DNA of 64,000 nt from Gammaproteobacteria bacterium (lineage in GTDB: Bacteria > Pseudomonadota > Gammaproteobacteria > Ga0077536): positions 7,737 to 71,736 of the forward strand of contig JAIEQK010000011.1 in NCBI GenBank assembly GCA_019747795.1. The letters are read 5' to 3'. The position numbers were made by a program, and so were the translations under genes. Shown piece by piece: positions 4,040 to 19,061 of the stretch. Within the stretch, counting starts at the first letter, position 1, and every line of letters begins with the position of its first letter. Below the pieces are notes generated by a model. It saw only the letters and a list, made by a program, of their open reading frames with translations, had not been told where the DNA came from and made no database searches.

Positions 4040-4450
4040 ATGGGTGAGAATCGGCCCATCCCCGCAGCCCTCGTCGCGCGCATGCCATCGCCCAAGTCGC
4101 AGAAGGAGCCCGCCCAGGCCGCCACGGTCAAGGCCTCGCGCCAATGGTTGTCACGCCACGCGGCCGCGGTGCCGGCGATGGCGGACTTCTACCGCCTGCT
4201 CGCCAATCCCACCCGGCTGCGCATCCTGCTGACCCTCGGTCGCGTGGAGCGCCTGTGCGTGGGTGACCTCGCCGCGGTGGTGGGACTCAGCGTCGCGGCC
4301 ACCTCGCAGCAGTTGAAGATGCTGAAGGGCGAAGGCTGGCTGCGCGCCGAGGGCCGTGGCAAGCAGGTCTACTACTCCATCACCAGCACCGCCCTGCGCG
4401 ACGCCCTGGAGGGCGATCTCGAACTCCTGCGCAAGAAGCCGCGCGGCTGA
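4040..4450 (+). CDS. ArsR/SmtB-family HTH transcriptional regulator. The true start is possibly the internal Met at ~4082.
   Basis: Winged-helix core 'LANPTRLRILLTLGRVERLCVGDLAAVVGLSVAATSQQLKMLKGEGWL'. It has only one Cys in the ELCV(C)DL position, so it is probably not a metalloid sensor itself. Confidence 0.7.
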   Translation: MGENRPIPAALVARMPSPKSQKEPAQAATVKASRQWLSRHAAAVPAMADFYRLLANPTRLRILLTLGRVERLCVGDLAAVVGLSVAATSQQLKMLKGEGWLRAEGRGKQVYYSITSTALRDALEGDLELLRKKPRG

Positions 4451-4494
4451 GCCCAGGCGGGCTTCAAGTCGCTTCGGTCTTGGTGCTAACATTT

Positions 4495-4521
4495 TCAAAT
4501 TGTCGAAAATGATTGAGCATC
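4495..4521 (+). promoter_or_regulatory. Candidate operator/promoter element 'TCGAAAATGATTGAGCATC' ending 2 nt before the SMR start codon. Related copies lie at ~32420-32441 and 53152-53164.
   Basis: Exact 13-mer ATGATTGAGCATC is shared with 53152-53164. 18/20 match with the palindromic site upstream of manC. Inner inverted repeat TTTTC-N8-GAAAA. Confidence 0.25.
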
Positions 4522-4522
4522 G

Positions 4523-4894
4523 ATGAGCACCTGCGCACAGCACGACAGTCGCGGCGAGACGCGTGCATGGGGCCTGCTGGCACTGGCCGTGACGGGCGAA
4601 ATAGCCGGCGTGCTGGCGCTGCGCGCCAGCGACGGCTTCGCGCGCCTCCTGCCCTCGCTCGCGGCGGTGCTGGCCTTCGGCGTGGCGCTGGTGGTGGTGA
4701 GCCGGGTGATGAAGGTGCTGCCGGTCAGCGTCGCCTACCCGGTGTGGGCCGGTGGCGGCACGGCCGGCGTGGCGCTGCTCGGCATGGGCGTGCTCGGCGA
4801 GACACCGAGCGTCGCGCGGGCGGTGGGCGTCGCGCTGATCGTGCTCGGCGTGGTGCTGATCAATCGCGACCGCGTCGCCGCGGGCGGGTGCTGA
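4523..4894 (+). CDS. Small multidrug resistance (SMR/EmrE-family) protein, subunit A of a probable heterodimeric pair.
   Basis: ~120 aa with four TM helices. Conserved membrane Glu in TM1 (VTGEIAGVLALRASDGF) and the 'VAYPVWAGGGTAG' motif. Confidence 0.8.
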   Translation: MSTCAQHDSRGETRAWGLLALAVTGEIAGVLALRASDGFARLLPSLAAVLAFGVALVVVSRVMKVLPVSVAYPVWAGGGTAGVALLGMGVLGETPSVARAVGVALIVLGVVLINRDRVAAGGC

Positions 4895-4901
4895 GCCGCG
4901 C

Positions 4902-5234
4902 ATGGCCCTGCACGCGGCCTGGGGATGGGTGCTTGGCGCCATCGTCGCGGAAACGATCGCCGCGCTCGCGCTCCGCGCGAGCGATGGTTTTACCCGTCCG
5001 CTGCCGGCGCTGTTGGCGACGGCGAGTTTCGCCTGCGCCTTCTATCTCACCAGCCTGGCGCTGGTGGTCCTGCCGGTCAGCCTGGTCTACCCGGTGTGGG
5101 CGGGCGGCGGCACGGCGGGCGCCGCGACCGCGGCGCTGTGGCTCTACGGCGAGCGTGCCGGCGCGCAAAAGATGCTGGGCGTCGCCGCCGTCGTGGCCGG
5201 CATCGTGGTGCTGAACATCGCCGCGCCCGCGTGA
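4902..5234 (+). CDS. SMR-family protein, subunit B of the paired SMR transporter.
   Basis: Paralogous to the preceding ORF (VAETIAALALRASDGF..., LVYPVWAGGGTAG) and separated from it by 7 nt. This arrangement is typical of heterodimeric SMR pumps. Confidence 0.8.
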   Translation: MALHAAWGWVLGAIVAETIAALALRASDGFTRPLPALLATASFACAFYLTSLALVVLPVSLVYPVWAGGGTAGAATAALWLYGERAGAQKMLGVAAVVAGIVVLNIAAPA

Positions 5235-5251
5235 GCGGGAGAGGAGAGCAG

Positions 5252-6379
5252 ATGGGCGTCTACCTCCGCTACTTCGGTACCCACCTGCTGCTGCTGGTGA
5301 CCGCCGTAGGCTTCCTCCTCGGCGGCGCCGCTCACTGGCTCGGTCTCGCCAGCGGCGTGGTGGTGTGGATCGGCGCAGACGCGCTCAGCCCGCGCGTGGG
5401 CGCCGCGCCCGCCTATCGCCATCGCGCGCTGCTGGACGTCGCGCTCTACAGTCTGTTCCCGCCGCTCGCGGCGCTGACGGCGATTTTCGCCTGGAGCCTG
5501 TCGAGGACCGATGTCCTCGGCTTCGGCGCCTGGCTGCACTCGGCCTTCGGCTACGACGCCCTCGCGGCGCGCGCGGCGACCGCCGGCTGGGACCTGGTGG
5601 GTGGGGCCTGGTCCTTCGCCCTCGCCATCGCGCTCGGCGGCATCCTGGTCGCGCACGAACTCGTGCATCGCACCCGCGATCCACTCGCGCTGGCGGTTGG
5701 GCGCTGGATGCTCGCCATCGCCTTCAACGCCACGCTCGAAGTGGCCCACGTGTTCGGTCATCACCGCGACGTCGGCACGCCGGCGGATCCGACCACCGCG
5801 CGCCGCGGCGAGAGCGTCTATCACTTCTACCTGCGCTCGACCTTCGGGCAGGTAGCCCAGGCCTGGCAGATCGAGCGTGAGCGCCTGGCGGGTGCCTCCG
5901 CGTGGCAACGCTGGTGGAGCAACCGTGTGCTGCGCGGCTTCCTGCGTTCGTGGAGCGTGGCCGGCGTGTTCTTTGCCGTTGGCGGCTGGCGCGCGCTCGG
6001 CGTGTTCCTGCTCGCCGCCGCCTACAACAAGCTGCTGCTCGAAGCGCTCAACTACATGGAGCACTACGGCCTGGTGCGCGTGCCCGGCACGCCGATAGAG
6101 CCACGCCACTCCTGGAATTCCGTGAGCGCCTTCAGCCATGCCGTGCTGTTCAACCTGCCCTGGCACGCCGATCACCATGCGCGCAGCCAGGTTCAGTACC
6201 CGGAACTGCACGCGACCGAGACCGCGCCCGTGCTCGGCCAGGGCTACCTTGCCACGTTGCCGCTGGTGCTCGTGCCGCCCCTGTGGCGCAGGCTGATCGC
6301 CCCCCGCCTGGCCGCCTGGGATCGCGAGCGCGCGAGCGCGGCGGAACGTTGCCTGGTGGGAGGGGACGGCGGTGGGTGA
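5252..6379 (+). CDS. Integral-membrane di-iron hydroxylase/desaturase of the AlkB/fatty-acid-desaturase family.
   Basis: Three histidine boxes: HELVHR, HVFGHHRD and HADHHAR. Multiple TM helices. RBS GAGGAGAG lies 4 nt upstream of the ATG. Confidence 0.7.
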   Translation: MGVYLRYFGTHLLLLVTAVGFLLGGAAHWLGLASGVVVWIGADALSPRVGAAPAYRHRALLDVALYSLFPPLAALTAIFAWSLSRTDVLGFGAWLHSAFGYDALAARAATAGWDLVGGAWSFALAIALGGILVAHELVHRTRDPLALAVGRWMLAIAFNATLEVAHVFGHHRDVGTPADPTTARRGESVYHFYLRSTFGQVAQAWQIERERLAGASAWQRWWSNRVLRGFLRSWSVAGVFFAVGGWRALGVFLLAAAYNKLLLEALNYMEHYGLVRVPGTPIEPRHSWNSVSAFSHAVLFNLPWHADHHARSQVQYPELHATETAPVLGQGYLATLPLVLVPPLWRRLIAPRLAAWDRERASAAERCLVGGDGGG

Positions 6380-6429
6380 GCGCCCATGTTGCTTTGACAC
6401 GAGGGCATGAGGCGCGGTGGCGTCGTCGG

Positions 6430-7650
6430 TCAGGGGGCAGGCAGCGGAGCGCGTACCGGCAGGCAGAGCGTGAGTGCGAAACAGAGTACGAGCATGAGGC
6501 TGCTGCCGAGCAGGCAGGCGCTCATGCCGCCCACTGCGGTAAGCGTGCCGGACAGCAGCACGCCGCACAGACGCCCACCGGCGTTGGCCGCGTAGTAGAA
6601 GCCGACGTCCTCGGCTGCCTTCTCCGAGCCCGCGTAGGCGAGGATGAGGTAGGAGTGCAGCGAGGACATCACCGCGAACGCGCCGCCGAACGCGCACAGT
6701 CCCGCGGTGACGATCAGCGTTGCGTGCCGCGGGTCGCTGGTGGTCAGCAGCAGCGCGATCGCGAGCGGCAGGCTCACCAGTAGCGCGCTCCACAGGCGAG
6801 CTTCCGGGACTTCGCGGGAGAGACCGTCAGGGCTGCGGCGCACGAGGCGCGGCGCGAGTGCCTGCACCAGGCCGTAACCGATGGTCCACAGCGCGAGGAA
6901 GCCGGCCACTTCCATGTAGCGCCAGCCGTGCGCGTAGAGAAACACCGGCAGGCCGACCACGAACCACACGTCACGCGCGCCGAACAGGCACAGGCGCGCG
7001 GCGGCCATCAGGTTGACGGCGCGCGACTTGGCGAAAAGCTCGCGGATGGAGCGCGAGGCCTTGGCCTGGCCGAGCGCGCGGGGCAGGGCGAGCGCCGTGA
7101 GGATCAATACGCTCACCAGGGCGGCGGCCATCACCGCCAGCGCGCCGCGAAACCCCAGGGCCTCGAGCAACACGCCGCCGAGGAAGAAGCCGATGCCCTT
7201 CATGGTGTTCTTCGAGCCGGTGAACCAGGCCACCCAGCGGAACAGGCGACCGTGCTCGCCGGCCGAAGTCGCCTTTAGCGCGGACTTCGCCGCGGTCTTG
7301 GTGAGGTCCTTGGCCACCCCGGCGACGCCCTGCGCGAGGACGACACAAGCGACCGACAGCGGCGCCTGCCAGCCGGGGTCGAGCGCCGCCAAGGCGCCGA
7401 TGCCGAGCAACTGCAGGACCATGCCGGTCATCAGCATCCGCGGGATGCCGTAACGGGTCGCGAGCCAGCCACCGACCAGGTTCGCGACCACGCCCGCGCC
7501 CTCGTACAGCACGAACAAGCTCGCGAGCTGCACGGGCGTGAAGCCCACGCGGTTGAAGTGGAGCAGGATGAGCGTGCGCAGCGCGCCGTCGGTGAGGGTG
7601 AATACCCAGTAGGCACCGGTCACCACCGCGTAGCTGCGCACGGCGGACAT
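6430..7650 (-). CDS. arsJ: MFS transporter ArsJ-like (organoarsenical 1-arseno-3-phosphoglycerate efflux permease), gene partner of GAPDH.
   Basis: 12-TM MFS protein starting [17 protein letters not shown]. Its start codon overlaps the gapdh stop by 1 nt (TGATG). The gapdh-arsJ pairing is characteristic of ars operons. Confidence 0.75.
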   Translation of the reverse strand: MSAVRSYAVVTGAYWVFTLTDGALRTLILLHFNRVGFTPVQLASLFVLYEGAGVVANLVGGWLATRYGIPRMLMTGMVLQLLGIGALAALDPGWQAPLSVACVVLAQGVAGVAKDLTKTAAKSALKATSAGEHGRLFRWVAWFTGSKNTMKGIGFFLGGVLLEALGFRGALAVMAAALVSVLILTALALPRALGQAKASRSIRELFAKSRAVNLMAAARLCLFGARDVWFVVGLPVFLYAHGWRYMEVAGFLALWTIGYGLVQALAPRLVRRSPDGLSREVPEARLWSALLVSLPLAIALLLTTSDPRHATLIVTAGLCAFGGAFAVMSSLHSYLILAYAGSEKAAEDVGFYYAANAGGRLCGVLLSGTLTAVGGMSACLLGSSLMLVLCFALTLCLPVRAPLPAP

Positions 7651-8693
7651 CAGGCGTCCCGCGCCGCCACGATGCTCGCCAGATCGATCATGCGACACGC
7701 GTAGCCGGCCTCGTTGTCGTACCAGGCATAGACCTTGAGCAGGGTGTCGTCGGTCACCAGCGTGCTCGGACCGTCGATGATGGCGCTGCGCGTGTCGTTG
7801 GCGTAGTCGGCGGAGACCAGCGGGCGCGACTCGAAGCCGAGGATGCCGGCCAGCGGGCCGGCGGCGGCGGTCGCGAACAGCTGGTTGATTTCTTCCGCGG
7901 TGACCGCGCGCCGCATTTCGAACACGCAGTCGGTGAGGCTCGCGTTCAGCACCGGCACGCGTACCGCGTGGCCGTTCAGCTTGCCGGCCAGCTCCGGGTA
8001 GATGAGGCCGATGGCCGTCGCGCTGCCGGTGGTGGTCGGCGCGAGCGACAGCAGCGCCGAGCGCGCGCGGCGCAGATCCGCGTGGGGCGCGTCGACCACC
8101 ACGTTGGTGTTGGTCGGGTCGTGCAGCGTGGTGATCTGTCCATGGCGAATGCCGATGGCTTCGTGCAGCACCTTGACCACCGGCGCGAGGCAGTTGGTGG
8201 TGCAGGACGCGGCGGTCAGCAGCCGATGTTCGGTGGGGCGGTAGAGATGATCGTTCACGCCGACCACCACGTTCAGCGCGCTGCCGTCCTTGACCGGCGC
8301 CGCGACGATGACACGCTTCACGCCCTGCCGAAAATAGCCTTCGAGGGTTGCCTGAGTGAGGAAGCGTCCGGTGCATTCCAGCACCAGATCGCAGCCGAGT
8401 GCGCCCCAGGGCACGTCGCCAGGGTTCGGCAGGGCGCTGAAGCCGATGCGTGTACCGGCGACGCTCAGCGCCCCGGGTCCGTCCACCGCTATTTCCGTGC
8501 GCCAGCGGCCGTGCACGCTGTCGAATTCCAACAGGTGCGCGGTGGCCGCCGCGCCGCCCTTGATCTCGTTCACGTGGACGATCTCCAGCCGCTGCGCGCG
8601 GCGGGGATCGTCCACCGGGCGCGGCAGGCCGCCGAGCGCCGCGCGTGCGACCAGGCGCCCGATGCGCCCCATGCCGTTGATGCCGACTCGCAT
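7650..8693 (-). CDS. gapdh: Glyceraldehyde-3-phosphate dehydrogenase, ars-operon associated.
   Basis: [13 protein letters not shown] Rossmann N-terminus. Catalytic '[10 protein letters not shown]' motif. C-terminal WYDNEAGY signature. Confidence 0.9.
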
Positions 8694-8706
8694 TCCTGGT
8701 GCTCCT

Positions 8707-9246
8707 TCAGCTGGTGAGTTCATCGTCGCCGTCAACGGCGCGCGGCAAGCGGCCGATGTCGTCGAGCTTGCGTTGCAAGGTGAGCGAGTCCAGCGCCGCC
8801 AGGGGCAGGCTCAAGAAGAGTTCGATGCGCCGCTTGATCTGCAGCGTCGCCTGCTCGAACGCGCGCCGTCGGCTCTCCGGCGAGCCGCCCCTCAGTCCAG
8901 GATCGTCGATGCCCCAGTGCGCGGTCACGGGCTGCCCCGGCCATTGCGGGCAGGTCTCGCCGGCGGCGGCGTCGCACAGGGTGAAGATGAAATCGAGGCG
9001 CGGCGCCGCGGGGCGGGTGAATTCGTCCCAGGACTTGCTGCGCATGTTCTCGGTCGGCAGGTGCATCTCTTCGATCATGGCCCGCGCGAGCGGATGCACG
9101 AAACCCGACGGGTGGCTGCCGGCGGAATAGGCGCGAAAACGTCCGCCGCCCAGGTGTGCGAGCAGCGCTTCAGCGATCAGCGAGCGCGAGGAATTGGCCG
9201 TGCACAGGAAGAGCACCGCGTAGCAGATGTCGGGCGTTGCGGTCAT
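8707..9246 (-). CDS. arsC: Arsenate reductase ArsC, low-molecular-weight phosphatase family (thioredoxin-coupled type).
   Basis: CX5R P-loop 'LCTANSSRS' at the N-terminus, plus downstream Cys pair ([15 protein letters not shown]). ~179 aa. Confidence 0.85.
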
Positions 9247-9329
9247 GCCGCGGGTCTCGGCGTCGAGGGTGGGCGTCGAAGGTAGAAGGGCATTGTTACC
9301 AATAGGTGACGCGTGGCGAAGGCGTGTTA

Positions 9330-9350
9330 TTTAGTTGTCATTGACAACCG
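9330..9350. promoter_or_regulatory. Perfect palindrome TTGTCATTGACAA in the arsC/marR divergent intergenic region. Candidate operator.
   Basis: TTGTCA-T-TGACAA inverted repeat seen directly in the sequence, 50-60 nt upstream of the MarR start. A second GGTT-N10-AACC dyad follows. Confidence 0.3.
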
Positions 9351-9398
9351 AATGCGCGGCAACTACCTTGCGATCATGGTTTCCACTAGCAACCAATC

Positions 9399-9881
9399 AT
9401 GACAGACACATCCACTGCCGGCGCGCTGCTGCGCGAGATCGCCCGCAGGTATTCCCGCGCGCAACGGGTGGTCGCCGACTGTTGCCGGGCGACAGGCACC
9501 CAGTGCCATCTGCTGACCGAGCTGGATGGTGCGGGACCGCTCTCACTGATCGATCTCGGCGCCCGCCTGTGCCTGGAGAAGAGCTGGGTGTCCCGCGCGG
9601 TCGATGCCATGGTCCAGCGCGGCCTGGTCACCAAGGAGCCCAACCCCGCGGACGCGCGCAGCTGGCTGGTCACCTTGACCCCGGCCGGCGCGCAGACCGC
9701 CGCCGAACTCAACCGCAGCCTGGACAACCACGCCGAGCAGCTTCTGGCCGGGCTCAATGCCCGCCAGCGCGCGAGCGTCGAAGCCAGCCTGCACCTCCTG
9801 ATGGAGGCCCTCAAACAGGACGGCGCGGCCAACTGCTGCCTGCCCGCCACCACGAAGAAAGGAGCGAACGCATGCTGCTGA
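9399..9881 (+). CDS. MarR-family transcriptional regulator with vicinal-cysteine pairs at both termini.
   Basis: wHTH core 'LTELDGAGPLSLIDLGARLCLEKSWVSRAVDAMVQRGLV'. N-terminal 'ADCCRATGTQC'. C-terminal tail 'ANCCLPATTKKGANACC*'. Confidence 0.75.
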   Translation: MTDTSTAGALLREIARRYSRAQRVVADCCRATGTQCHLLTELDGAGPLSLIDLGARLCLEKSWVSRAVDAMVQRGLVTKEPNPADARSWLVTLTPAGAQTAAELNRSLDNHAEQLLAGLNARQRASVEASLHLLMEALKQDGAANCCLPATTKKGANACC

Positions 9882-11749
9882 ACGAATCCCTGCGTCTGCG
9901 GCCCGCCACGCCGGCCGACTGGCCGATGATCGCGAGCTTGCTGGAATGCGAGCAGCTGCCCCTGGCCGGCGCGCGCGAACACCTGGCCACCTTCGTGGTG
10001 GCGGTCCTGGACGACCGCGTGGTGGGCGTGGCCGGCGCCGAAGTCCATGGCGATGTGGCCCTGCTGCGTTCGGTGGCGGTGGAGAAGGGGATGCAAGGTC
10101 GCGGCATCGGCCGGCGCATGGTCGAGCTGATGCTGAGTGAGGCCGCGCGCCGCGACATCGTCGAGGTGTATCTCCTCACCACTGGCGCCGCCGAGTACTT
10201 TCCGCGCTTCGGTTTCAGCCCGCGCGAGCGCGCGAGCGCGCCCGCCGCGCTGGCGGCCTCCGCGGAGTTCCAGGGCGCCTGCCCGGACTCGGCGGCGCTG
10301 CTCGGTCTGCGCCTGCGCGATCGAGTGATGCCGAGCGGCGAGCTGCCGGTTGCCGTAATCGGCGCCGGGCCGGTGGGGCTGGCCGCGGTGGCGCGCCTGC
10401 TCGAACGCGGCATCGAGCCCCTGGTGTTCGAAGCGGGCGCCACCGTGGCCGCGAGCTACGTCGACTTCGGTCACGTGCGTCTGTTCTCGCCCTGGCGCGC
10501 GAACATCGACCCGTGCATGGCCGCGATGCTCGAGGCCCGCGGCTGGACGCCGCCGCCCAGTGAAGATCTGCCGCTCGCGAGCGAGGTCGTGAGCGGCGTG
10601 CTGGAACCCTTTGCCGCGCTGCCGGAAGTGGCGCGCAGCCTGCACCTGCAAAGCAAGGTGGTGGCCATTACGCGCGAGGGCCATGACAAGGTGCAGAGCG
10701 CAGGCCGCGAGGCCGCGCCCTTCGTCCTGCGCGTCGAGCGCGACGGTGTCGTGCAGGAGTTTCGCGCACGCGCCGTGATCGACGCGAGCGGCACCTGGCA
10801 GTCGCCGAATCCGCTGGGCGGGAACGGCCTGCCGGCGCTGGGCGAAGAGCAGCTGGCGACTTTCATCCACTACGGCATTCCGGACGTGCTCGGCAGCGCG
10901 CGAGCGCGCTATGCCGGCAAGCGCACGCTGGTGGTCGGCGCCGGTCACTCCGCGGCGAACAGCCTGCTCGCCCTGGCCGAACTGGCGCGCGAAGCGCCGG
11001 GCACGCGTTTCGTGTGGGCGGTGCGCTCCGAGTCGCTCGCCCGCGTGTTCGGCGGCGGCGCGGCCGATGGCCTGCCGGCGCGCGGCCAGCTTGGCCAGGC
11101 GCTGAAGGCGCTTCGCGACTCGGGCCAGATGGAGTTCGTGAGCGGCGTACGTATCGACGCCATGGAACGCGACGGCAAGGCCTTGCGCGTGCGCGGCCGA
11201 CGGGTCCGTGGCGAGACGGTGGACATCGCGGGCATCGACGAGATCATCTGCGCCACCGGTCAGCGACCCGATCTCGGCATGACGCGCGAACTGCGCCTGG
11301 CGCTCGACCCCTGGCTGGAATCGGTCCAGGCCCTCGGGCCGCTGATCGATCCCAACCTGCACAGCTGCGGCTCGGTGCGCCCCCACGGGCACCGCGAGCT
11401 GTCGCACCCGGAAGCGGGCTTCTACACCGTCGGCGTGAAGAGCTACGGCCGCGCGCCGACCTTCCTGATGATGACCGGCTTCGAACAGGTGCGCTCGGTG
11501 GTGGCGGCCTTGGCGGGCGACCTCGCGGCCGCCGACCGGCTGGAGCTCGAACTCCCCGAGACCGGCGTGTGCTCGGTCAGCGCCGATCTCGACCTGGGTG
11601 CGGGCAGCGCCTGTTGTGGGACGAGCGAGGTCGAGATCCCGGCGCCCTCGGCCAGCGCCTGCTGCGCGGCGCCCTCGGCATCGATGCCAGCGGCCGAGAG
11701 CGCCTGCTGCGCGAAGCCGGTCGCCAAGCCTGCGGCCTGCTGCGGCTGA
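9872..11749 (+). CDS. Fusion protein: N-terminal GNAT acetyltransferase (ArsN-like) plus FAD/NAD(P)-binding flavin monooxygenase/oxidoreductase (ArsO/CzcO-like) plus a C-terminal tail of four Cys-Cys pairs.
   Basis: GNAT motif 'VAVEKGMQGRGIGRRMVE'. Two Rossmann dinucleotide motifs: 'VAVIGAGPVGLAAVARLLERG' and 'TLVVGAGHSAANSLLAL'. Tail 'SACCGTSEVEIPAPSASACCAAPSASMPAAESACCAKPVAKPAACCG*'. The start overlaps the marR end by 10 nt. Confidence 0.7.
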   Translation: MLLNESLRLRPATPADWPMIASLLECEQLPLAGAREHLATFVVAVLDDRVVGVAGAEVHGDVALLRSVAVEKGMQGRGIGRRMVELMLSEAARRDIVEVYLLTTGAAEYFPRFGFSPRERASAPAALAASAEFQGACPDSAALLGLRLRDRVMPSGELPVAVIGAGPVGLAAVARLLERGIEPLVFEAGATVAASYVDFGHVRLFSPWRANIDPCMAAMLEARGWTPPPSEDLPLASEVVSGVLEPFAALPEVARSLHLQSKVVAITREGHDKVQSAGREAAPFVLRVERDGVVQEFRARAVIDASGTWQSPNPLGGNGLPALGEEQLATFIHYGIPDVLGSARARYAGKRTLVVGAGHSAANSLLALAELAREAPGTRFVWAVRSESLARVFGGGAADGLPARGQLGQALKALRDSGQMEFVSGVRIDAMERDGKALRVRGRRVRGETVDIAGIDEIICATGQRPDLGMTRELRLALDPWLESVQALGPLIDPNLHSCGSVRPHGHRELSHPEAGFYTVGVKSYGRAPTFLMMTGFEQVRSVVAALAGDLAAADRLELELPETGVCSVSADLDLGAGSACCGTSEVEIPAPSASACCAAPSASMPAAESACCAKPVAKPAACCG

Positions 11750-11758
11750 GACGCGTCG

Positions 11759-12946
11759 ATGTCGCGCACCGCGACCGTGGTCGTGCTCGGCATCGGCCAG
11801 ACGCTGGGTTGGGGCTCGACCTACTACCTGCCCGCGGTGCTGGCCGCGCCGATGGCCCAGGAACTGGGCGTGCCGACCGCGATGGTCTACGCGGCGTTCT
11901 CCGCGTCGCTGGTTCTGTCCGCCCTGGTCGGTCCGCTGGCCGGGCGTCTCATCGACGCCCACGGCGGACGCGGACTGCTGATGGCGACCAACGTAGTCTT
12001 CGCGCTGGGCCTCGCCGCGCTCGGCGCCGCGCAGGGCGTGCTCTCGCTGTTCGCGGCCTGGGCGGTGCTCGGCATCGGCATGGGCAGTGGGCTCTACGAG
12101 GCGGCGTTCGCCACCGTGGTCAGGCTGTGGCGCTACGAATCGCGCAACGCCATCACCGGCATCACGCTCATCGCGGGCTTCGCCAGCACCGTGGCCTGGC
12201 CGCTCAGCGCCTGGCTGAACGCGGAGTTCGGTTGGCGCATCGCGTGTCTCGCCTGGGCGGGGCTGCATCTCGGCGTCGCCTTGCCCTTGCACATGCGCGT
12301 GCCGCGTCCTTCGGCGGACGAGGCGCCAGCCGAGCAGAGCGCCGCGTCGACGCCGACGTCGGAGCACCGCTCCACACCTGAACTGCTGCCCGCCAATCCC
12401 ACCGTCACCGCGGCCGTGCTCGGCTACGTGTTCGCCGTCACCTGGTTCATCGCCACCGCGATGGCGGCCCATCTGCCGCGCATGCTCGAGGCGGCCGGCG
12501 CGAGCGTGACGCTGGCGGTGGCGGCGGGCGCCTTGATCGGCCCGGCCCAGGTGGGCGCGCGATTGCTGGAGTTCAGCCTGCTGCGCCACATCTCCCCGCT
12601 GTTCTCCGCCAGGCTCGCGGCCCTGGCCCATCCGCTCGGCGCGCTGGTGCTGCTGTTCGGCGGAGGCGCCTACGCCGCCGCGTTCACGGTGCTGCACGGC
12701 GCGGGTAACGGCATCCTGACCATCGCCAAGGGCACCTTGCCGCTGGTGTTCTTCGGCCCGGATGGCTACGGCGCCCGCCAGGGCTGGCTGATGCTGCCGG
12801 CGCGGGTCGCGCAGGCCGTCGCGCCACTTGCCTTCAGCCTGGCCCTGGACGGACTGGGTGGCCAGGTGGCCTGGTTGTCCGGTGGACTCGCGACCAGTGC
12901 GCTGCTGGCGCTGCTGGTGCTCAGACCGCCCGTGCGGCGCCTATGA
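11759..12946 (+). CDS. MFS transporter. Possible metalloid/organoarsenical efflux permease.
   Basis: 12 predicted TM helices. MFS signature region 'GPLAGRLIDAHGGRG'. Lies 10 nt downstream of the GNAT-FMO gene. Confidence 0.7.
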   Translation: MSRTATVVVLGIGQTLGWGSTYYLPAVLAAPMAQELGVPTAMVYAAFSASLVLSALVGPLAGRLIDAHGGRGLLMATNVVFALGLAALGAAQGVLSLFAAWAVLGIGMGSGLYEAAFATVVRLWRYESRNAITGITLIAGFASTVAWPLSAWLNAEFGWRIACLAWAGLHLGVALPLHMRVPRPSADEAPAEQSAASTPTSEHRSTPELLPANPTVTAAVLGYVFAVTWFIATAMAAHLPRMLEAAGASVTLAVAAGALIGPAQVGARLLEFSLLRHISPLFSARLAALAHPLGALVLLFGGGAYAAAFTVLHGAGNGILTIAKGTLPLVFFGPDGYGARQGWLMLPARVAQAVAPLAFSLALDGLGGQVAWLSGGLATSALLALLVLRPPVRRL

Positions 12947-13060
12947 ATACGTCGAGTGACCCATGCGCGTCTCGCGCCGTCCACGGCAGCGCGGAACCCC
13001 ACACGGGCTGTCTCCCACAACCATCACCATCACCCTGAACCTTCAACCGAGGATAGACAC

Positions 13061-13339
13061 ATGAGCACTCTCTCCATGCGCGATCGCGAACTCGTGGCGC
13101 TGGGCGCCGCGCTGGCCAGCAACTGCATCCCCTGCATCGAGTTCCACGTGCCCGCCGCCCGCAAGGCCGGCCTGAGCGACGCCGACATCGCCGAAGCCAT
13201 CGCGCTGGCCGACAAGATCCGCAAGGTCCCGGCGGACAAGGCGCTCGATGCCGCGCACGCGCAGCTGGGCGCGGCGCCGGCCGTGGCTGGCAGCGCCTGT
13301 TGCGCGCCCTCGGCAGAGCCGGGCAAGGCGTGTTGTTGA
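13061..13339 (+). CDS. Carboxymuconolactone-decarboxylase/AhpD-like small redox protein with a C-terminal di-Cys-pair tail.
   Basis: AhpD-core CxxC motif 'ASNCIPCIEFH'. Tail 'SACCAPSAEPGKACC*'. 92 aa. Confidence 0.65.
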   Translation: MSTLSMRDRELVALGAALASNCIPCIEFHVPAARKAGLSDADIAEAIALADKIRKVPADKALDAAHAQLGAAPAVAGSACCAPSAEPGKACC

Positions 13340-13391: not shown

Positions 13392-14030
13392 ATGAACGAT
13401 TCGCCGAGCATCGAACTCGACTTCGATGTCATCGCGCGCGAGCAGTCTCCCGCGCTGCTGCGCTATCTGCGCCGACGTGTCGGGGACCACGCCGACGCCG
13501 CCGATCTCTTGCAGGAGACGCTGATCAAGGCGAGCCGTGGTCTCGGCAGCTTCGCCGGCCGCGCGTCGCTGCAGACCTGGCTGTTGGCCATCGCCCGCAA
13601 TGTCGCCAACGATTTCCTGCGCAGACCCGAGCGCCGTCACTCGTTCGTTGCGGTGGAGGAGGCCATCGAGGTGGAGGACGGCGCACTCGGCGTCGAGCAG
13701 CGCATGGAAGCCGACGAGACGAATCTTTGCGTGCGCGAAGTCATCGACAGCCTGACGCCGGACTACCGCGCGGCGCTCATCCTCCACGACCTGGAAGGTC
13801 TGGATTGCGAGCAGACCGCCGAAGTCGTGGGTGGCAGCGTGGGCGCGGTCAAGGTGCGCCTCCACCGCGCGCGCCTGCGTCTCAAGTCCGTGCTCGAGCG
13901 CAGGTGCGGCTTCTATCGAGACAGCGACAGCGTGCTGCGCTGTGAGCGACGGGACGTGTCGTCGATCCCCGCGGGTGGAGCAGCCGACCGGTCGCCAACG
14001 CCTCCGCGCGCGTTGGGCGTATTTCTGTAA
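13392..14030 (+). CDS. ECF-type RNA polymerase sigma-70 factor with a ~50-aa Cys-containing C-terminal extension.
   Basis: Region 2 'LLRYLRRRVGDHADAADLLQETLIKA'. Region 4 'YRAALILHDLEGLDCEQTAEVVGGSVGAVKVRLHRAR'. Extension '...RRCGFYRDSDSVLRCERRD...'. Confidence 0.8.
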   Translation: MNDSPSIELDFDVIAREQSPALLRYLRRRVGDHADAADLLQETLIKASRGLGSFAGRASLQTWLLAIARNVANDFLRRPERRHSFVAVEEAIEVEDGALGVEQRMEADETNLCVREVIDSLTPDYRAALILHDLEGLDCEQTAEVVGGSVGAVKVRLHRARLRLKSVLERRCGFYRDSDSVLRCERRDVSSIPAGGAADRSPTPPRALGVFL

Positions 14031-14287: not shown

Positions 14288-14440
14288 ATGAGCGCCGAGC
14301 TCGAGAAACGCCGAGACGAGGCGCTGGTCAGCGTCGCCTGGCTGGCGGACAACCTCGATCGACCGGGCCAGCGCATCGTCGACATGCGCAAGGGCGATGG
14401 CTATGACGCTGCCCACATACCCGGGGCCGTCAGCCGATGA
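14288..14440 (+). pseudogene. Truncated rhodanese/sulfurtransferase N-terminal fragment (50 codons).
   Basis: Translation 'MSAELEKRRDEALVSVAWLADNLDRPGQRIVDMRKGDGYDAAHIPGAVSR*' matches the start of a rhodanese domain through the AHIPGA motif, then hits a stop. Neither continuing frame extends the domain. ATGA overlap with the next ORF. Confidence 0.35.
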
Positions 14441-15216
14441 CTACCCGTGTAATCCTGTCCGGGCGTGACGCCGAACTGGTCGCTCAGGTTCGTAGGCGCC
14501 TGGCGGCAGCGTGTGACGGTCGAGGGGGCATGACGATTGAGGTGGCATCCGCCGCCGGCGCATCCTGCGATCTCTGGATCGCGTTGGACCCCGGCGCGGA
14601 CGGCCCGCCGGCGCCGCCGCTGCGGCCACGCTACGTCGATTGGTCGTTGCTTGGTGGCTGGTGGGCGAGCAACCGACAGGCGCATGCCGATCCCAGCGCC
14701 GCGTACGCCGCGCTGGACGCGCTGCTGCAGCCGCGTATCGCCGTGCTGCTTGCGCTGCTGCCGGTGCCGGGCGGACCCGCCGCCGCGGAATTCCACGCCA
14801 GCCTGCGCGTGCAGGACCTGCCGCGCAGCGTGGCCTTCTACGCCTGGCTGCTCGACACCTGGCCGCGGGAGTGGACACACCGCTATGCGACCTTCATCCG
14901 GCCGGATCTCGCGCTCAACTTCGTGCTGATGGTCGCCGACGGCAACGCGCTTCACCACGACACGCTGTATCACCTCGGGATCGCGCTGCCGGATCGGGCC
15001 GCGGTCATCGATGCCTATCACCGCGCGCGCGCTTTCGGCGCCTGCATCTCGAAGCCGCCGCGCACGACCTGGCGGGGAACGCCACTGCACGAACTGTGGC
15101 TGGAGGATCCCGACGGTACGCTGATCGAGATCTATGCGCGCCTGACGCCCGCGGAACTGGCCGACATGCCGGCGGACCAGGCGCCGGTGTTCCTGGTGCC
15201 CGGCACGGCGCCGTGA
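14437..15216 (+). CDS. VOC-superfamily (glyoxalase/bleomycin-resistance/dioxygenase fold) protein with an uncharacterised ~110-aa N-terminal region.
   Basis: C-terminal half 'FHASLRVQDLPRSVAFYAWLLDT...HLGIALPDRAAVIDAYHRARAFG...HELWLEDPDGTLIEIYAR' is typical of glyoxalase-I-like beta-alpha-beta-beta-beta modules. It has no vicinal Cys, so it is not an ArsI-type C-As lyase. Confidence 0.6.
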   Translation: MTTRVILSGRDAELVAQVRRRLAAACDGRGGMTIEVASAAGASCDLWIALDPGADGPPAPPLRPRYVDWSLLGGWWASNRQAHADPSAAYAALDALLQPRIAVLLALLPVPGGPAAAEFHASLRVQDLPRSVAFYAWLLDTWPREWTHRYATFIRPDLALNFVLMVADGNALHHDTLYHLGIALPDRAAVIDAYHRARAFGACISKPPRTTWRGTPLHELWLEDPDGTLIEIYARLTPAELADMPADQAPVFLVPGTAP

Positions 15217-15253: not shown

Positions 15254-16306
15254 TCAGGCCGTCCGCAAGCCGCGCTCGTACCACTGCTTGGAGCGATTCA
15301 CGACGCGCACCACCAGCAGCATCACCGGGACTTCGATCAGCACGCCCACCACGGTCGCGAGCGCCGCGCCGGACTCGAAGCCGAACAGGCTGATGGCGGC
15401 CGCGACCGCCAGTTCGAAGAAGTTCGATGCGCCGATCAGGGCCGATGGACAGGCCACGTCATGGGACTCGCCCAACGCGCGGTTCAGCCCATAGGCCAGC
15501 GCCGAGTTGAACAGCACCTGCAACAGTATCGGTACCGCGAGCAGGGCGATCACCAGCGGCTGATCGAGGATGGCCTTGCCCTGGAAAGCGAACAGCAGCA
15601 CCAGCGTCGCGAGCAGCGCGGTGATCGACCAGGGACCGATGCGTTCCATCGCGGCGTCGAAGGCCGCCTGGCCGCCGGCCAGCAGGCGTCGGCGCCACGC
15701 TTGCGCCAGCAGCACCGGGATGACGATGTACAGCACGACCGACGTGAGCAAGGTCGCCCATGGCACGGTGATGGACGAGATGCCGAGCAGGAGCGCGACG
15801 ATGGGCGCGAAGGCGAACACCATGACGGTGTCGTTCAAGGCCACCTGCGAAAGCGTGAACAGCGGATGGCCATTGGTGAGACGGCTCCACACGAACACCA
15901 TCGCCGTGCAGGGCGCGGCCGCCAGCAGGATGAGGCCGGCGATGTAGCTGTCCAACTGCTCTGCCGGCAGCCAGGGCGCGAACAGGCCGCGAATGAACAC
16001 CCAGCCGAGCAGCGCCATCGAGAACGGCTTCACCAGCCAGTTCACGAACAGCGTCACGCCTATGCCTTTCATGTGTCGGCGCACTTCGTGCAGCGCGCCG
16101 AAGTCCACCTTCACCAGCATCGGGATGATCATCACCCAGATGAGCAGGCCCACTGGCAGGTTGACCTGCGCGAACTCGAGCCGGCCGATGGCCTGGAACA
16201 GGCTGGGCAGCGCCTGGCCGGCGCCGATGCCGACCAGGATGCAGAGAAACACCCACAGCGTCAGGTAGCGCTCGAAGATGCTCATGGGTGCGGGGGCAGT
16301 GCTCAC
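15254..16306 (-). CDS. acr3: Arsenite efflux permease, ACR3 family.
   Basis: 'FERYLTLWVFLCILVGIGAG' N-terminus and conserved 'AAAPCTAMVFVWS' Cys motif. ~345 aa with 10 TM helices. Last gene of the arsRDA-acr3 operon. Confidence 0.9.
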   Translation of the reverse strand: MSTAPAPMSIFERYLTLWVFLCILVGIGAGQALPSLFQAIGRLEFAQVNLPVGLLIWVMIIPMLVKVDFGALHEVRRHMKGIGVTLFVNWLVKPFSMALLGWVFIRGLFAPWLPAEQLDSYIAGLILLAAAPCTAMVFVWSRLTNGHPLFTLSQVALNDTVMVFAFAPIVALLLGISSITVPWATLLTSVVLYIVIPVLLAQAWRRRLLAGGQAAFDAAMERIGPWSITALLATLVLLFAFQGKAILDQPLVIALLAVPILLQVLFNSALAYGLNRALGESHDVACPSALIGASNFFELAVAAAISLFGFESGAALATVVGVLIEVPVMLLVVRVVNRSKQWYERGLRTA

Positions 16307-16340
16307 GAGGGGGACTCCATTGGTGCGTGTGGTCGAATGA

Positions 16341-18113
16341 CTATGGCGCGTCCGCGCCGTGGGTGGCCAGCCGTCGCAGGCGTTCGACGCCCACCGGCTC
16401 TTCGGTCAACAGCGGTACAACGGCGTGACGCCTGGCGTGTCGGGTGCGTACCAGGTCGATCTCGCGCAGCTCGTTGGCGGCGCGCTGGCGGAGCAGGGGC
16501 GCTTCGGGATGGCTGGCGGCGACGCAGTTGTTGATGACCCAGGCCCAGGGCTCGATGCCGGCCCGGCGCAGATCCTGCTGCAGGCTCGCGGCTTCCAGCA
16601 CCGGGGTGGTCTCCGCCAGCGTCACCAGCAGGACCTTGGTGCGGTCAGGATCCTGCAGCTGCAGCATCGGCGTGTGATAGCGCACCGACGAGCCGCTCAG
16701 CTGGCGGACGATTTCGCGGTGATAAGCGCCGGTAGCGTCGAGCAGCAGCAGTGTGTGACCCGTGGGCGCCGTGTCCATGACCACGAACTTCCTGGCCGCT
16801 TCGCGGATCACTCGCGAGAAGGCCTGGAATACCGCGATCTCCTCCGTGCAGGGCGAGCGCAGGTCTTCCTCGAGCAACGCGCGACCGTGCGCGTCGAGCT
16901 TGGCGCCCTTGGTGTCCATGACGTGCTGACGATAGCGCACGGTCTCCGCCTGTGGATCGATGCGGTCGACGGTCAGATGGGGCAACGCGCCGTCCAGCGT
17001 GTCGGCGAGGTGCGCGGCCGGGTCGGAGGTGGTCAGGTGCACGTCGTGCCCGCGCAGCGCGAGTTCGACGGCGACCGCGGCGGCGAGCGTGGTCTTGCCG
17101 ACCCCGCCCTTGCCCATCAGCATCACGAGCCCATGACCGCTCACGGCGATGTCGTCGACGAGCGAGGCCAGGCTCGGCGCCTGCAGTGGCGGCAGGGCCG
17201 GCAGCTGGGCGTCGGTCGCATCCATGGTCTCGCGCAGCAGCTGCCGCAGTGCGTCCACGCCGACGAGATTGAAGGGCTTGAGCGCGACTTCATCGCGCGG
17301 CAGTGCCTGCAGCGCTTCGGGCAGGGCGGCGAGTTCCTGTTGCTCCCGTCGGCACACGGCCTGGGCCAGAGGGTCGTCGCCTGCGCCGTCGCGCGGGTAG
17401 ACGCCGTTCACGACCAGGAACTGCTGGTCGATCCCCAGCTCGGCGAGCTCATCGTGGGTGCGGGCGGCTTCACGCAGGGTCGAGCGCTGAGCGCGGGCGA
17501 CCAGCACCATGCGCGTGCGCGTCGAGTCGGCCAGCGCCGCCACGGCAGCGCGATACTGATCGCGCTGTTTCTCCAGGCCGGCCAGCGGGCCGAGACAGGA
17601 GGCGTCGCCCTTGCCGGCGTCGAGAAAGCCGCTCCAGGCGCCCGGTAGCTGCAACAGGCGAATGGTGTGGCCGGTGGGCGCCGTGTCGAACACGATGTGC
17701 GCGTAGCGCTGCGCGAGATCGGCGCTGGTCAGCAGGCCCGTGAATTCGTCGAAGGCGGCGATCTCGGTGGTGCACGCGCCGGACAACTGCTCTTCGATGC
17801 TGCGCACGACACTTTCCGGCAGCACGCCGCGTACCGGGCCGACGATGCGATCGCGGTAGGCCTGGGCGGCGGCCTGGGGATCGATCTCGAGCGCGCTCAG
17901 GTTCGGTACCGCGGCGATGGGCGTCACGCGATTGCCGATCGCGATGTCGAACACCTGGCCGACGTTCGAGGCCGGATCGGTGCTGACCAGCAGCACCGCC
18001 TTGCCGCGACCGGCGAGTTCCACCGCCGTCGCGCACGCCAGGGAGGTCTTGCCGACGCCGCCCTTGCCGGTGAAGAAGAGGAAGATCGGCGGCGACTGCA
18101 GAAAGCGGAACAT
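16341..18113 (-). CDS. arsA: Arsenite-transporting ATPase ArsA (two homologous halves).
   Basis: Two Walker A motifs (FTGKGGVGKTS and LMGKGGVGKTT). Two signal-transduction DTAPTGHT motifs. 590 aa. Start MFRFLQSPP computed from the track by frame arithmetic. Confidence 0.9.
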   Translation of the reverse strand: MFRFLQSPPIFLFFTGKGGVGKTSLACATAVELAGRGKAVLLVSTDPASNVGQVFDIAIGNRVTPIAAVPNLSALEIDPQAAAQAYRDRIVGPVRGVLPESVVRSIEEQLSGACTTEIAAFDEFTGLLTSADLAQRYAHIVFDTAPTGHTIRLLQLPGAWSGFLDAGKGDASCLGPLAGLEKQRDQYRAAVAALADSTRTRMVLVARAQRSTLREAARTHDELAELGIDQQFLVVNGVYPRDGAGDDPLAQAVCRREQQELAALPEALQALPRDEVALKPFNLVGVDALRQLLRETMDATDAQLPALPPLQAPSLASLVDDIAVSGHGLVMLMGKGGVGKTTLAAAVAVELALRGHDVHLTTSDPAAHLADTLDGALPHLTVDRIDPQAETVRYRQHVMDTKGAKLDAHGRALLEEDLRSPCTEEIAVFQAFSRVIREAARKFVVMDTAPTGHTLLLLDATGAYHREIVRQLSGSSVRYHTPMLQLQDPDRTKVLLVTLAETTPVLEAASLQQDLRRAGIEPWAWVINNCVAASHPEAPLLRQRAANELREIDLVRTRHARRHAVVPLLTEEPVGVERLRRLATHGADAP

Positions 18114-18127
18114 GGCTCGCGCGCGTT

Positions 18128-18493
18128 TCAGCAGCACTGCTCGCCGCTGCAGCACGCGCCGGCGCCGGGCGCGGACGGCGCATCGCCCTGACGAGCCCAG
18201 CGCGCGAGCTCGGTGCGGCTCGGATAACGACCGTTCAAAACCGCCTCGCCATCCACGAGGACGAGCGGCAGGCCGGCCTCGCCACTGGCATGCAGAAAGG
18301 CGCTGACGACCGGGTTGTTCGCGAAATCGAGCGGCGCCTGGGCGAGATTGTGGCGTTGGACATCGACGCCCTGGCTGCGCGCCCATTCGAGGTCGGCAGC
18401 GAAATAGAGCAGGGCTTCGTCGACGTCGACGCCGCATACACCGCTCGCACAGCACAGGGCCGGGTCGTAGATGTCGATGACAGGCACGGTCAC
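18128..18493 (-). CDS. arsD: Arsenical-resistance metallochaperone/repressor ArsD.
   Basis: 'MTVPVIDIYDPALCCASGVCG' (Cys12-Cys13-Cys18 As(III) site). C-terminal 'GACCSGEQCC'. Closely parallels canonical ArsD. Confidence 0.9.
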   Translation of the reverse strand: MTVPVIDIYDPALCCASGVCGVDVDEALLYFAADLEWARSQGVDVQRHNLAQAPLDFANNPVVSAFLHASGEAGLPLVLVDGEAVLNGRYPSRTELARWARQGDAPSAPGAGACCSGEQCC

Positions 18494-18570
18494 TCCTCTC
18501 GTTCAGGTCTCGCCCCATCGGGCGGTGCAGTGGGACAACATGCGTCCTGCGCGGAACGGCGCGGACCTCG

Positions 18571-18936
18571 TCACTTCGCTGCCACGCGGGGCCGCGCGGT
18601 CTTTGCTGGCCGGCAGGACACCGACGCAAGGGCGTCGACGCACTGCTCGGGATGGCCCTGGCAACACTCGTCGGTGAGGAAGGCCACCAGCGCCTGCACC
18701 GCCGGCAGCAGCGCCCGGTAGCGTTGGAAGCGCCCCTCGGAGGTCACGGCGACCAGGCCCGCATGGGTCAGGGTCTTGAGATGGAAGGAGAGGTTGGCCG
18801 GCGTGACGCCGAGCGCGGTGGCGATTTCGCCGGCCACCAGGCCCGTGGGCTCGTGGCGCACCAGGAGGCGGAAAGTCTCCAGGCGCACAGCGGAGGACAG
18901 GGCCTCGAAGACCTTGCTGGCATCGGCAGAGCGCAT
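18571..18936 (-). CDS. arsR: ArsR-family As(III)-responsive repressor with a C-terminal Cys-Cys-x-Cys sensing site (atypical/AfArsR-like type).
   Basis: wHTH 'VRLETFRLLVRHEPTGLVAGEIATALGVTPANLSFHLKTL'. No Cys in the DNA-binding helix, but C-terminal 'DECCQGHPEQC'. First gene of arsR-arsD-arsA-acr3. Confidence 0.8.
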   Translation of the reverse strand: MRSADASKVFEALSSAVRLETFRLLVRHEPTGLVAGEIATALGVTPANLSFHLKTLTHAGLVAVTSEGRFQRYRALLPAVQALVAFLTDECCQGHPEQCVDALASVSCRPAKTARPRVAAK

Positions 18937-19061
18937 GTCGATTGATTCAATGCTTAAAGAGACATTAAAACGTCGTGGCGCCTGCGTCGTCAACCGACGC
19001 TGGGCATGCACGGGCGTTCAGGGTGCCGCTCACGACCCGGCGCGAACGCCGCGCCGGCCGG

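Follow-up and report, generated by a model that had tools for sequence, protein, structure and literature searches.

In the window examined here, a 64,000-nucleotide stretch of contig JAIEQK010000011.1 from a gammaproteobacterial assembly (GCA_019747795.1), an arsenic island carries a marR-type gene (9399–9881, + strand) that encodes a cysteine-rich regulator of 160 aa, heads an accessory operon and diverges from arsC. We estimate, at roughly 80%, that its product is a thiol-based metalloid sensor of the MarR_ars type, which would act as an autorepressor on two boxes in its own promoter and be released from them by trivalent arsenicals or antimonite. The present analysis provides the fold, the conservation of the cysteines, the arsenic context, the membership of the subfamily by orthology and the two-box architecture of the promoter. 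That As(III) or Sb(III) frees the regulator from its DNA, and that cysteines are needed for this, is instead taken from a distant member of the subfamily, AdMarR_ars, and would apply here by analogy, whereas the identity of the ligand-binding cysteines, the ligand specificity and the role of the boxes as binding sites are predictions.

The MarR protein, its cysteines and its relatives

The product of marR matches the Pfam profiles PF01047 (MarR; 53 bits with a cut-off of 24.6, E 3e-14) and PF12802 (MarR_2; 47.3 bits with a cut-off of 27), and none of the curated NCBIfam equivalogs scores on it above its own cut-off. At E ≤ 0.01 it is matched neither by the OhrR equivalog models nor by the ArsR-type helix-turn-helix models PF01022 (HTH_5) and NF033788 (HTH_metalloreg), which do match the true ArsR proteins of the island (4040–4450 and 18571–19011). 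The AlphaFold2 (AF2) monomer model, with a mean predicted local distance difference test (pLDDT) score of 83.6, has the canonical α1–α6 helices and wing, with helices at residues 7–28, 33–45, 50–57 and 61–73, strands at 77–93 and further helices at 95–116 and 121–140; α1, α5 and α6 are available for dimerisation. The best Foldseek matches are all MarR proteins, with TM-scores of 0.74–0.85 to E. coli MarR and up to 0.85 across MarR, Rv0880 and MexR, and 1z91, 1lnw and 3mex are among them. Foldseek and the profile searches returned ordinary MarR structures only, the MarR_ars subfamily being without a solved structure. On the evidence of profiles and model, the protein is a MarR-fold regulator.

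Eight cysteines can be read from the translation of 9399–9881, at positions 28 and 29 (ADCC), 36 (TQC), 58, 146 and 147 (ANCC) and 159 and 160 (the terminal ACC), which confirms the CC pairs at both ends of the protein described in the first-pass annotation of this DNA. In the AF2 model C28 is the last residue of α1, C29 lies in the α1–α2 loop and C36 on the first turn of α2, while C146 and C147 directly follow α6, where a disordered tail of low confidence begins. Across 25 aligned homologues (64–76% identity) C28, C29, C36, C146 and C147 are invariant, C58 is variable and the terminal CC (159/160) is mostly, but not always, kept. A wider homologue search gave 547 cluster representatives at E ≤ 1e-5; in the best 120 of these 547, which are 64–98% identical to the MarR protein, the motif DCC-x6-C was present in 117, CCLP in 118 and a cysteine among the last four residues in 111.

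When the representatives of clusters at 50% identity were searched exhaustively, 342 clusters were reached at E ≤ 1e-10, with 123 informative distant members; an N-terminal CC was found in 74 of these, CC-x(5-8)-C in 69, a tail cysteine in 73 and a tail CC in 28. Among the distant representatives, many of those about 300 aa long are fusions of MarR to ArsN2, as found for seven of the eight long ones tested (P0128, P0136, P0145, P0161, P0187, P0144 and P0192); in two longer fusions (540–574 aa) the two domains are separated by a spacer. The existence of these fusions provides an independent functional link to arsenic genes. As an observation in its own right, the fusion of a regulator to an enzyme that is otherwise under its control is unusual.

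The gene context was compared by scanning one genome per species, which gave 80 loci encoding relatives of 51–97% identity (81 with the window). The genera named in their records belong to the Burkholderiales, e.g. Roseateles, Pelomonas, Aquabacterium, Rubrivivax, Ideonella, Acidovorax and Rhizobacter. Most of the loci share the gene order marR, arsN2, flavoprotein and major facilitator superfamily (MFS) transporter, and upstream of marR there are normally one or two arsC genes, often with acr3. The divergent arrangement of the window is unusual in this clade, most relatives carrying arsC upstream on the same strand; a divergent arsC was seen only in the window, in its 97%-identical relative L001 and in L028 and L068, and in the latter two, unlike in the window, the divergent operon opens with an arsR. 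Judged from these neighbourhoods, the MarR protein is tied to arsenic genes across nearly all 80 loci. The first-pass annotation had considered that homologues with the same cysteine pattern might be found regulating unrelated pathways; no set of this kind was met among the homologues, an outcome that favours a role in arsenic.

Membership of the MarR_ars subfamily

The MarR_ars subfamily was named in 2021 (Yu, Feng, Chen, ... Rosen, Grove, Chen, Rensing; bioRxiv 10.1101/2021.08.12.456183), with AdMarR_ars (QVQ28260.1) of Achromobacter deleyi As-55 as its founder, which was studied by knockout, reverse transcription quantitative PCR (RT-qPCR), electrophoretic mobility shift assay (EMSA) and Cys-to-Ser reporters. 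In that work AdMarR_ars was reported to repress arsV and its own gene, so that arsV became constitutively expressed when marR was deleted. In EMSA it bound the marR and arsV promoters, and As(III) or Sb(III) relieved the binding, a release obtained in vitro in a buffer containing dithiothreitol (DTT). The variants C36S, C37S and C157S lost the response; in this protein of 163 aa, Cys157 is 6 residues short of the C-terminus. The same paper defines no operator, and lists further marR_ars loci, among which those of Roseateles aquatilis (NZ_NIOF01000003.1) and Rhizobacter sp. Root404 (NZ_LMDS01000005.1).

These two records are also present in our set of loci, as L048 and L077, and encode proteins 63 and 69% identical, respectively, to the MarR protein of the window, with the same operon order and in arsenic clusters. 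Assuming that their genes are those drawn in the figure of Yu et al., orthology to L048 and L077 places the window protein in MarR_ars, of which it is, on this sequence-based assignment, a member. Its gene also has the context of the subfamily, an ars island with arsN/arsV/arsP-type genes alongside, since an ArsN2 domain scoring above its equivalog cut-off is coupled to marR. With the founder it shares the MarR fold, vicinal cysteines near the α1/α2 junction, a tail cysteine and the location in an ars island beside an arsN/flavoenzyme gene; autoregulation, established for AdMarR_ars, is also proposed for the window protein. The clade of the window differs from the founder by having five invariant cysteines (CC-x6-C and CCLP), and usually a terminal Cys or CC, compared to the three reported. 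On the sequences compared here, this five-cysteine signature of the Burkholderiales clade is richer than the published triad and is added by the present analysis. Candidates for the counterpart of Cys157, by position only, are C146/147, which are invariant, and C159/160, which are usually kept. The gene differs as well in heading an arsN2::flavoprotein-MFS operon, in its divergence from arsC-gapdh-arsJ and in the two-box operator predicted for it.

It follows that the claim of the first-pass annotation that the arsenic regulators described so far are all of the ArsR/SmtB type was wrong, MarR_ars having been described in 2021, and that a thiol-rich MarR does not represent a new class of sensor, since the subfamily was already known and L048 and L077 are close relatives. 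What stands of that annotation is the candidate metalloid sensor itself, which is favoured by the MarR fold, the invariant cysteines, the arsenic context and the conserved box; the novelty of its class is lost. A 2024 review of bacterial metal sensing in Chem Rev gives the Zn(II) sensors as the only characterised metalloregulators of the MarR family, so that MarR_ars has evidently gained little notice beyond work on arsenic.

Cysteines at the end of α1 and past α6 have the geometry of 2-Cys OhrR. A different signal could be considered on this ground: the protein would sense redox or thiol stress in the manner of 2-Cys OhrR and MexR, in which oxidants, or the oxidative stress induced by arsenic, form disulfides between N- and C-terminal cysteines and cause release from DNA, without the metalloid being the signal. 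The fold is shared with OhrR and MexR, and the operon described below includes an AhpD-like gene of a peroxidase family and a flavoprotein of the disulphide-oxidoreductase type. We nevertheless consider a redox sensor quite unlikely. In fact, the context is specific for arsenic over the 80 loci, fusions to ArsN2 exist, the OhrR models gave no match at the threshold reported above, vicinal CC pairs are typical ligands of soft metalloids and, moreover, the founder was released by As(III) and Sb(III) in vitro in a buffer with DTT.

The marR promoter and its two candidate boxes

The first-pass annotation had pointed to a perfect dyad in the divergent promoter shared by arsC and marR. The 13-mer TTGTCATTGACAA is indeed found at 9335–9347, its single occurrence in the window, and extends to the perfect 15-bp dyad GTTGTCATTGACAAC (box 1, 9334–9348), which we predict to be the main operator on the basis of its sequence and of its conservation in relatives. 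Box 1 lies within the 152-bp intergenic gap between arsC and marR and precedes the ATG of arsC by 88 nt. It contains a candidate −35 hexamer of the marR promoter, TTGACA (9341–9346, + strand), matching the consensus at 6/6 positions and kept in the consensus of the clade; 17 nt after it, a candidate −10 hexamer, TACCTT (9364–9369, + strand), is suggested by the orthologous promoters, which show at the same spacing TAnCnT-type hexamers, e.g. TATCGT, TAGCAT and TAAGGT. A marR promoter is proposed here because of the perfect −35 and of the conserved 17-nt spacing. A second, degenerate copy, GTTTCCACTAGCAAC (box 2, 9379–9393), has one mismatch to GTTG-N7-CAAC, stands 45 bp downstream of box 1 and ends 5 nt before the marR ATG; its sequence is identical in L001 although the adjoining spacer differs.

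In 77 of the 81 loci (window included) the 250 nt that precede marR contain the motif GTTG-N7-CAAC in strict form, the remaining 4 having versions with one mismatch, while the other 1.25 Mb of the same loci contained 7 sites (0.006 per kb). An ungapped stack of 72 marR promoters gave, in order, TAGTTGCTATTGACAAC (box 1), TAnCnT 17 nt after TTGACA, ATAGTTGCTATnCACAnC (box 2), 3–4 nt and the ATG, with the columns of the boxes conserved at 70–99% (≥90% for box 1 and 70–88% for box 2) and the flanks at 30–60%. In the relatives the second box comes 45–47 bp after the first and is a strict match in 21 loci. The candidate operator of the clade, GTTGCTATTGACAAC, is sharply defined and occurs twice per promoter at a spacing of 45–47 bp. 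Neither the exact dyad TTGTCAnTGACAA nor the looser GTCAnTGAC was found when searched for in the related loci. The left arm of the clade consensus includes GCTA in place of GTCA; what is conserved is the core GTTG-N7-CAAC.

The palindromy of box 1 was rejected as evidence by itself, since perfect 7+1+7 dyads occur at chance level in the window (66% G+C), which has 13 compared to a Markov-1 mean of 9.8 (range 5–16); box 1 is the sole A+T-rich one, with 0.2 expected. Its significance comes, instead, from its conservation in orthologous promoters. The dyad could also be nothing but a strong −35 region that is palindromic by accident, with the MarR protein binding elsewhere or not at its own promoter, because TTGACA alone covers 6 of its 15 positions and dyads of this kind have the frequency expected by chance. 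However, the left arm GTTG falls outside the −35 and is yet ≥90% conserved, the second box recurs at the fixed offset of 45–47 bp without any TTGACA (it ends in CACAAC), and the same box is found ahead of another arsenic-type gene in L024, so that we regard an accidental palindrome as highly improbable. The box of L024, ATAGTTGCTATTCACAAC, is an extra consensus copy just upstream of the ribosome-binding site (RBS) of an ArsO-like flavin monooxygenase gene (6003–7208 in that locus; 276 bits to NF040505, under the cut-off), which is located just upstream of marR. It probably marks a second promoter under the same regulator, a placement on two promoters that parallels the binding of AdMarR_ars to those of marR and arsV.

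Two other readings of such sites were discarded. The dyad as an operator of ArsR was rejected because the box accompanies marR whatever the upstream gene; in the 80 related loci the position of box 1 travels with marR regardless of it. Matches to GTTG-N7-CAAC with one mismatch are at chance level in the window (19 found, 19.8 expected), and the one at 13007–13021, in the gap ahead of the AhpD-like gene, was too weak to be taken as a further box.

As far as it can be read from sequence, the layout is that of a classic MarR autorepressor. Spaced by about 11 bp, the arms GTTG and CAAC would be well placed for a winged-helix dimer that reaches into consecutive major grooves. The predicted operator consensus and the two-box architecture, which the present analysis adds for the Burkholderiales clade, are well supported by the comparison of these promoters.

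Two side observations concern the same intergenic region. A mini-ORF (open reading frame) of 8 codons, ATG GTT TCC ACT AGC AAC CAA TCA TGA (9376–9402, + strand), extends across box 2, and its stop codon shares nucleotides with the ATG of marR (ATGA); the matching ATG is in frame with marR in L028 and L068, suggesting that the start codon of marR, or a leaderless transcript, may differ between lineages. On the arsC side there is a tandem direct repeat, GGCGTCGAGGGT / GGCGTCGAAGGT, at 9259–9283, and the adjoining block 9266–9299 is identical in L001 while its flanks differ; the repeat region may be part of the promoter or leader of arsC.

Genes predicted to be regulated, proposed mechanism and comparison with known systems

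The marR gene was described in the first-pass annotation as divergent from arsC-gapdh-arsJ and as the head of an accessory operon, and both parts hold. The 152-bp gap separates marR from arsC, while at the other end the marR stop overlaps by 10 nt (...GCATGCTGCTGA...) the ATG, at 9872, of the first gene predicted to be regulated. This gene (9872–11749, + strand) is a single ORF of 625 aa, which comprises an ArsN2 acetyltransferase domain (NCBIfam NF040501, 139.9 bits with a cut-off of 125), a flavoprotein of the pyridine-nucleotide-disulphide-oxidoreductase type (the Pfam matches being GNAT and Pyr_redox_2/3) and a cysteine-rich tail with four CC pairs. ArsN2 and flavoprotein domains form one ORF in 50/50 of the loci in which they are adjacent; the tail is of low complexity, 35–130 aa long, with a CC pair flanked as in G/S/A-CC-G, and its last residues are almost always CCG or CCR. 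As far as these loci go, the first gene after marR is always this fusion with a CC-rich tail (50/50), an addition of the present analysis. Mercuric reductase, MerA, has a C-terminal vicinal cysteine pair, and by analogy the CC-rich tail may serve to bind the metalloid and supply it to the active site at the flavin.

The third gene of the operon (11759–12946, + strand), starting 10 nt after the preceding stop, encodes an ArsK-like MFS transporter (236.7 bits to MFS_ArsK, under the cut-off of 400). After a gap of 114 nt comes a gene for an AhpD/CMD-like protein (13061–13339, + strand; Pfam CMD, E 5e-14) with an ACC...ACC tail, which is possibly the last gene of the marR operon; it is present in L001 and L006 and is not conserved generally. 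The tail of this protein is cysteine-rich (...GSACCAPSAEPGKACC), and terminal CC motifs are observed on three proteins of one gene row, namely MarR, the flavoprotein fusion and the AhpD-like protein.

On the opposite strand, the arsC-gapdh-arsJ operon (6430–9246, − strand) consists of an arsC of the low-molecular-weight (LMW) phosphatase type (8707–9246, Pfam LMWPc), the gene of the ArsJ-associated glyceraldehyde-3-phosphate dehydrogenase (GAPDH; 7650–8735; NF033735, G3PDH_Arsen, 528 bits with a cut-off of 450) and arsJ (6430–7650). No arsC promoter was identified in a sigma-70 promoter scan of 9200–9450, and the operon has neither an arsR nor any other regulator gene of its own. The MarR protein may control it too.

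Elsewhere in the island there is a canonical arsR-arsD-arsA-acr3 unit (15254–19011, − strand), with arsR at 18571–19011. Between it and the marR operon, an ECF-type sigma factor gene (Sigma70_r2/r4; 13392–14030, + strand) lies between the AhpD-like gene and an ArsI-like gene of the glyoxalase fold (14437–15216, + strand), whose product has an N-terminal extension of about 115 aa. A second gene of the ArsR/SmtB family (4040–4450, + strand) is followed by a pair of SMR transporter genes (4523–4894 and 4902–5234) and, after the pair, by a long ORF within 4040–6379 (+ strand).

The mechanism that we propose for the MarR_ars-type sensor is as follows. The ligand-free homodimer would occupy box 1, occluding the −35 of its own promoter, and probably also the weaker box 2, covering the 5′ leader just ahead of the start codon. 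This would silence marR together with the translationally coupled arsN2::flavoprotein gene, the ArsK-like MFS gene and, perhaps, the AhpD-like gene. Cysteine thiolates would bind As(III), Sb(III) and, probably, methylarsenite, the candidate ligands being Cys28-Cys29 at the end of α1, Cys36 on the first turn of α2 and Cys146-Cys147 just past α6, in a site that may span the subunits as in 2-Cys OhrR. The binding of the metalloid would distort the dimer and shift the spacing of the recognition helices, which would no longer fit the dyad, resulting in release from DNA and in transcription of the operon.

Several points weigh against this picture. The window protein and its clade are known from sequence and model alone, and the AF2 model is a monomer, so that any contact between the N- and C-terminal cysteine clusters is beyond its reach. 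The founder, known here from fragments derived from primers, differs around the cysteine pair: its mutagenic primers (Yu et al.) encode RDRDRI-C36-C37-YDVSV and VAST-C157-AADP, i.e. RICCYDVSV compared to ADCCRATGTQC in the window, and a single tail cysteine compared to ANCCLP. C28/C29, at the α1/α2 junction, correspond to C36/C37 by position only. An X-padded query built from these primer peptides found no protein in the collection sharing three words with it. On the DNA side, perfect dyads as large as box 1 arise readily by chance in the window, box 2 of the window is degenerate and the −10 of marR is weak, matching at 3/6 positions, for which reason the sigma-70 scan did not call this promoter; the scan gave no call on either strand. 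Finally, because the island has a separate arsR-arsD-arsA-acr3 unit, the sensing of As(III) by the MarR protein could be redundant, and its true ligand may be an organoarsenical.

This last point can be developed into a sensor selective for organoarsenicals, mainly methylated or aromatic trivalent ones such as MAs(III) and Rox(III), or for an arsenic-containing antibiotic, with inorganic arsenite left to ArsR, which would be a variant of the proposed mechanism rather than an exclusive alternative to it. The regulated genes are of the accessory or organoarsenical type (ArsN2, flavoprotein oxidoreductase and ArsK-like MFS), an ArsI-like gene is nearby and inorganic As(III) is already covered by the canonical unit; moreover, Yu et al. 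linked MarR_ars to resistance to arsenic-containing antibiotics, and their abstract mentions a response to MAs(III). By contrast, inorganic As(III) and Sb(III) elicited a response of AdMarR_ars in vivo as well as in EMSA, and the three or more conserved thiols are no less suited to holding As(III) in an S3 site than MAs(III) in an S2 site. The present data do not discriminate between the ligands, and we hold selectivity for organoarsenicals to be possible, though doubtful. A bolder model, which seems unlikely to us, would make the Burkholderiales MarR_ars clade a two-site sensor, telling inorganic As(III)/Sb(III) from organoarsenicals by an N-terminal CC-x6-C and a C-terminal CCLP with the terminal CC; a single dyad in the 152-bp region would switch both arsN2::flavoprotein-MFS and arsC-gapdh-arsJ, and the CC tails of regulator, flavoenzyme and AhpD-like protein would reflect a direct thiol-to-thiol hand-off of the metalloid.

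MarR-type metalloid sensors are the subject of one experimental paper, without a structure, a defined operator or coordination chemistry. The locus and its 80 relatives offer a candidate operator, a five-cysteine signature and a conserved candidate regulon, which could help the design of biosensors and the annotation of arsenic islands. The general picture of thiol-rich winged-helix repressors sensing As(III) is unchanged. The As(III) repressors of the ArsR/SmtB family (R773 ArsR, AfArsR and CgArsR), of which the island has one member at 18571–19011 (− strand), follow the same logic, a winged-helix homodimer released by As(III)/Sb(III) at a cluster of cysteine thiolates; the MarR protein differs from them in having no ArsR/HTH_5 match, six helices, a dimer interface of α1, α5 and α6 and other positions of the cysteines.

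Within the MarR family, 2-Cys OhrR and MexR share its fold, as the Foldseek matches 1z91, 1lnw and 3mex indicate, and carry their regulatory cysteines within the helix at the N-terminus and close to the one at the C-terminus, but they respond to peroxide or disulfide stress, are without vicinal CC pairs and control regulons unrelated to arsenic. AdcR and ZitR, which sense Zn(II), are likewise MarR-family proteins that bind a metal directly; however, their sites are made of His and Glu, their binding to DNA is promoted by Zn(II) as a co-repressor, and the genes under their control are those of uptake. E. coli MarR is an autorepressor at marO, with two pseudo-palindromic sites, one over the −35/−10 and the other over the leader/RBS region. 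It has the closest fold to the model of the window protein and, like it, two operator sites (predicted for the latter) in its own promoter; it differs in the sequence of the box, in its ligands (phenolics and Cu(II)-driven oxidation) and in being without the cysteine-rich motifs by which the MarR protein of the window would sense arsenic.

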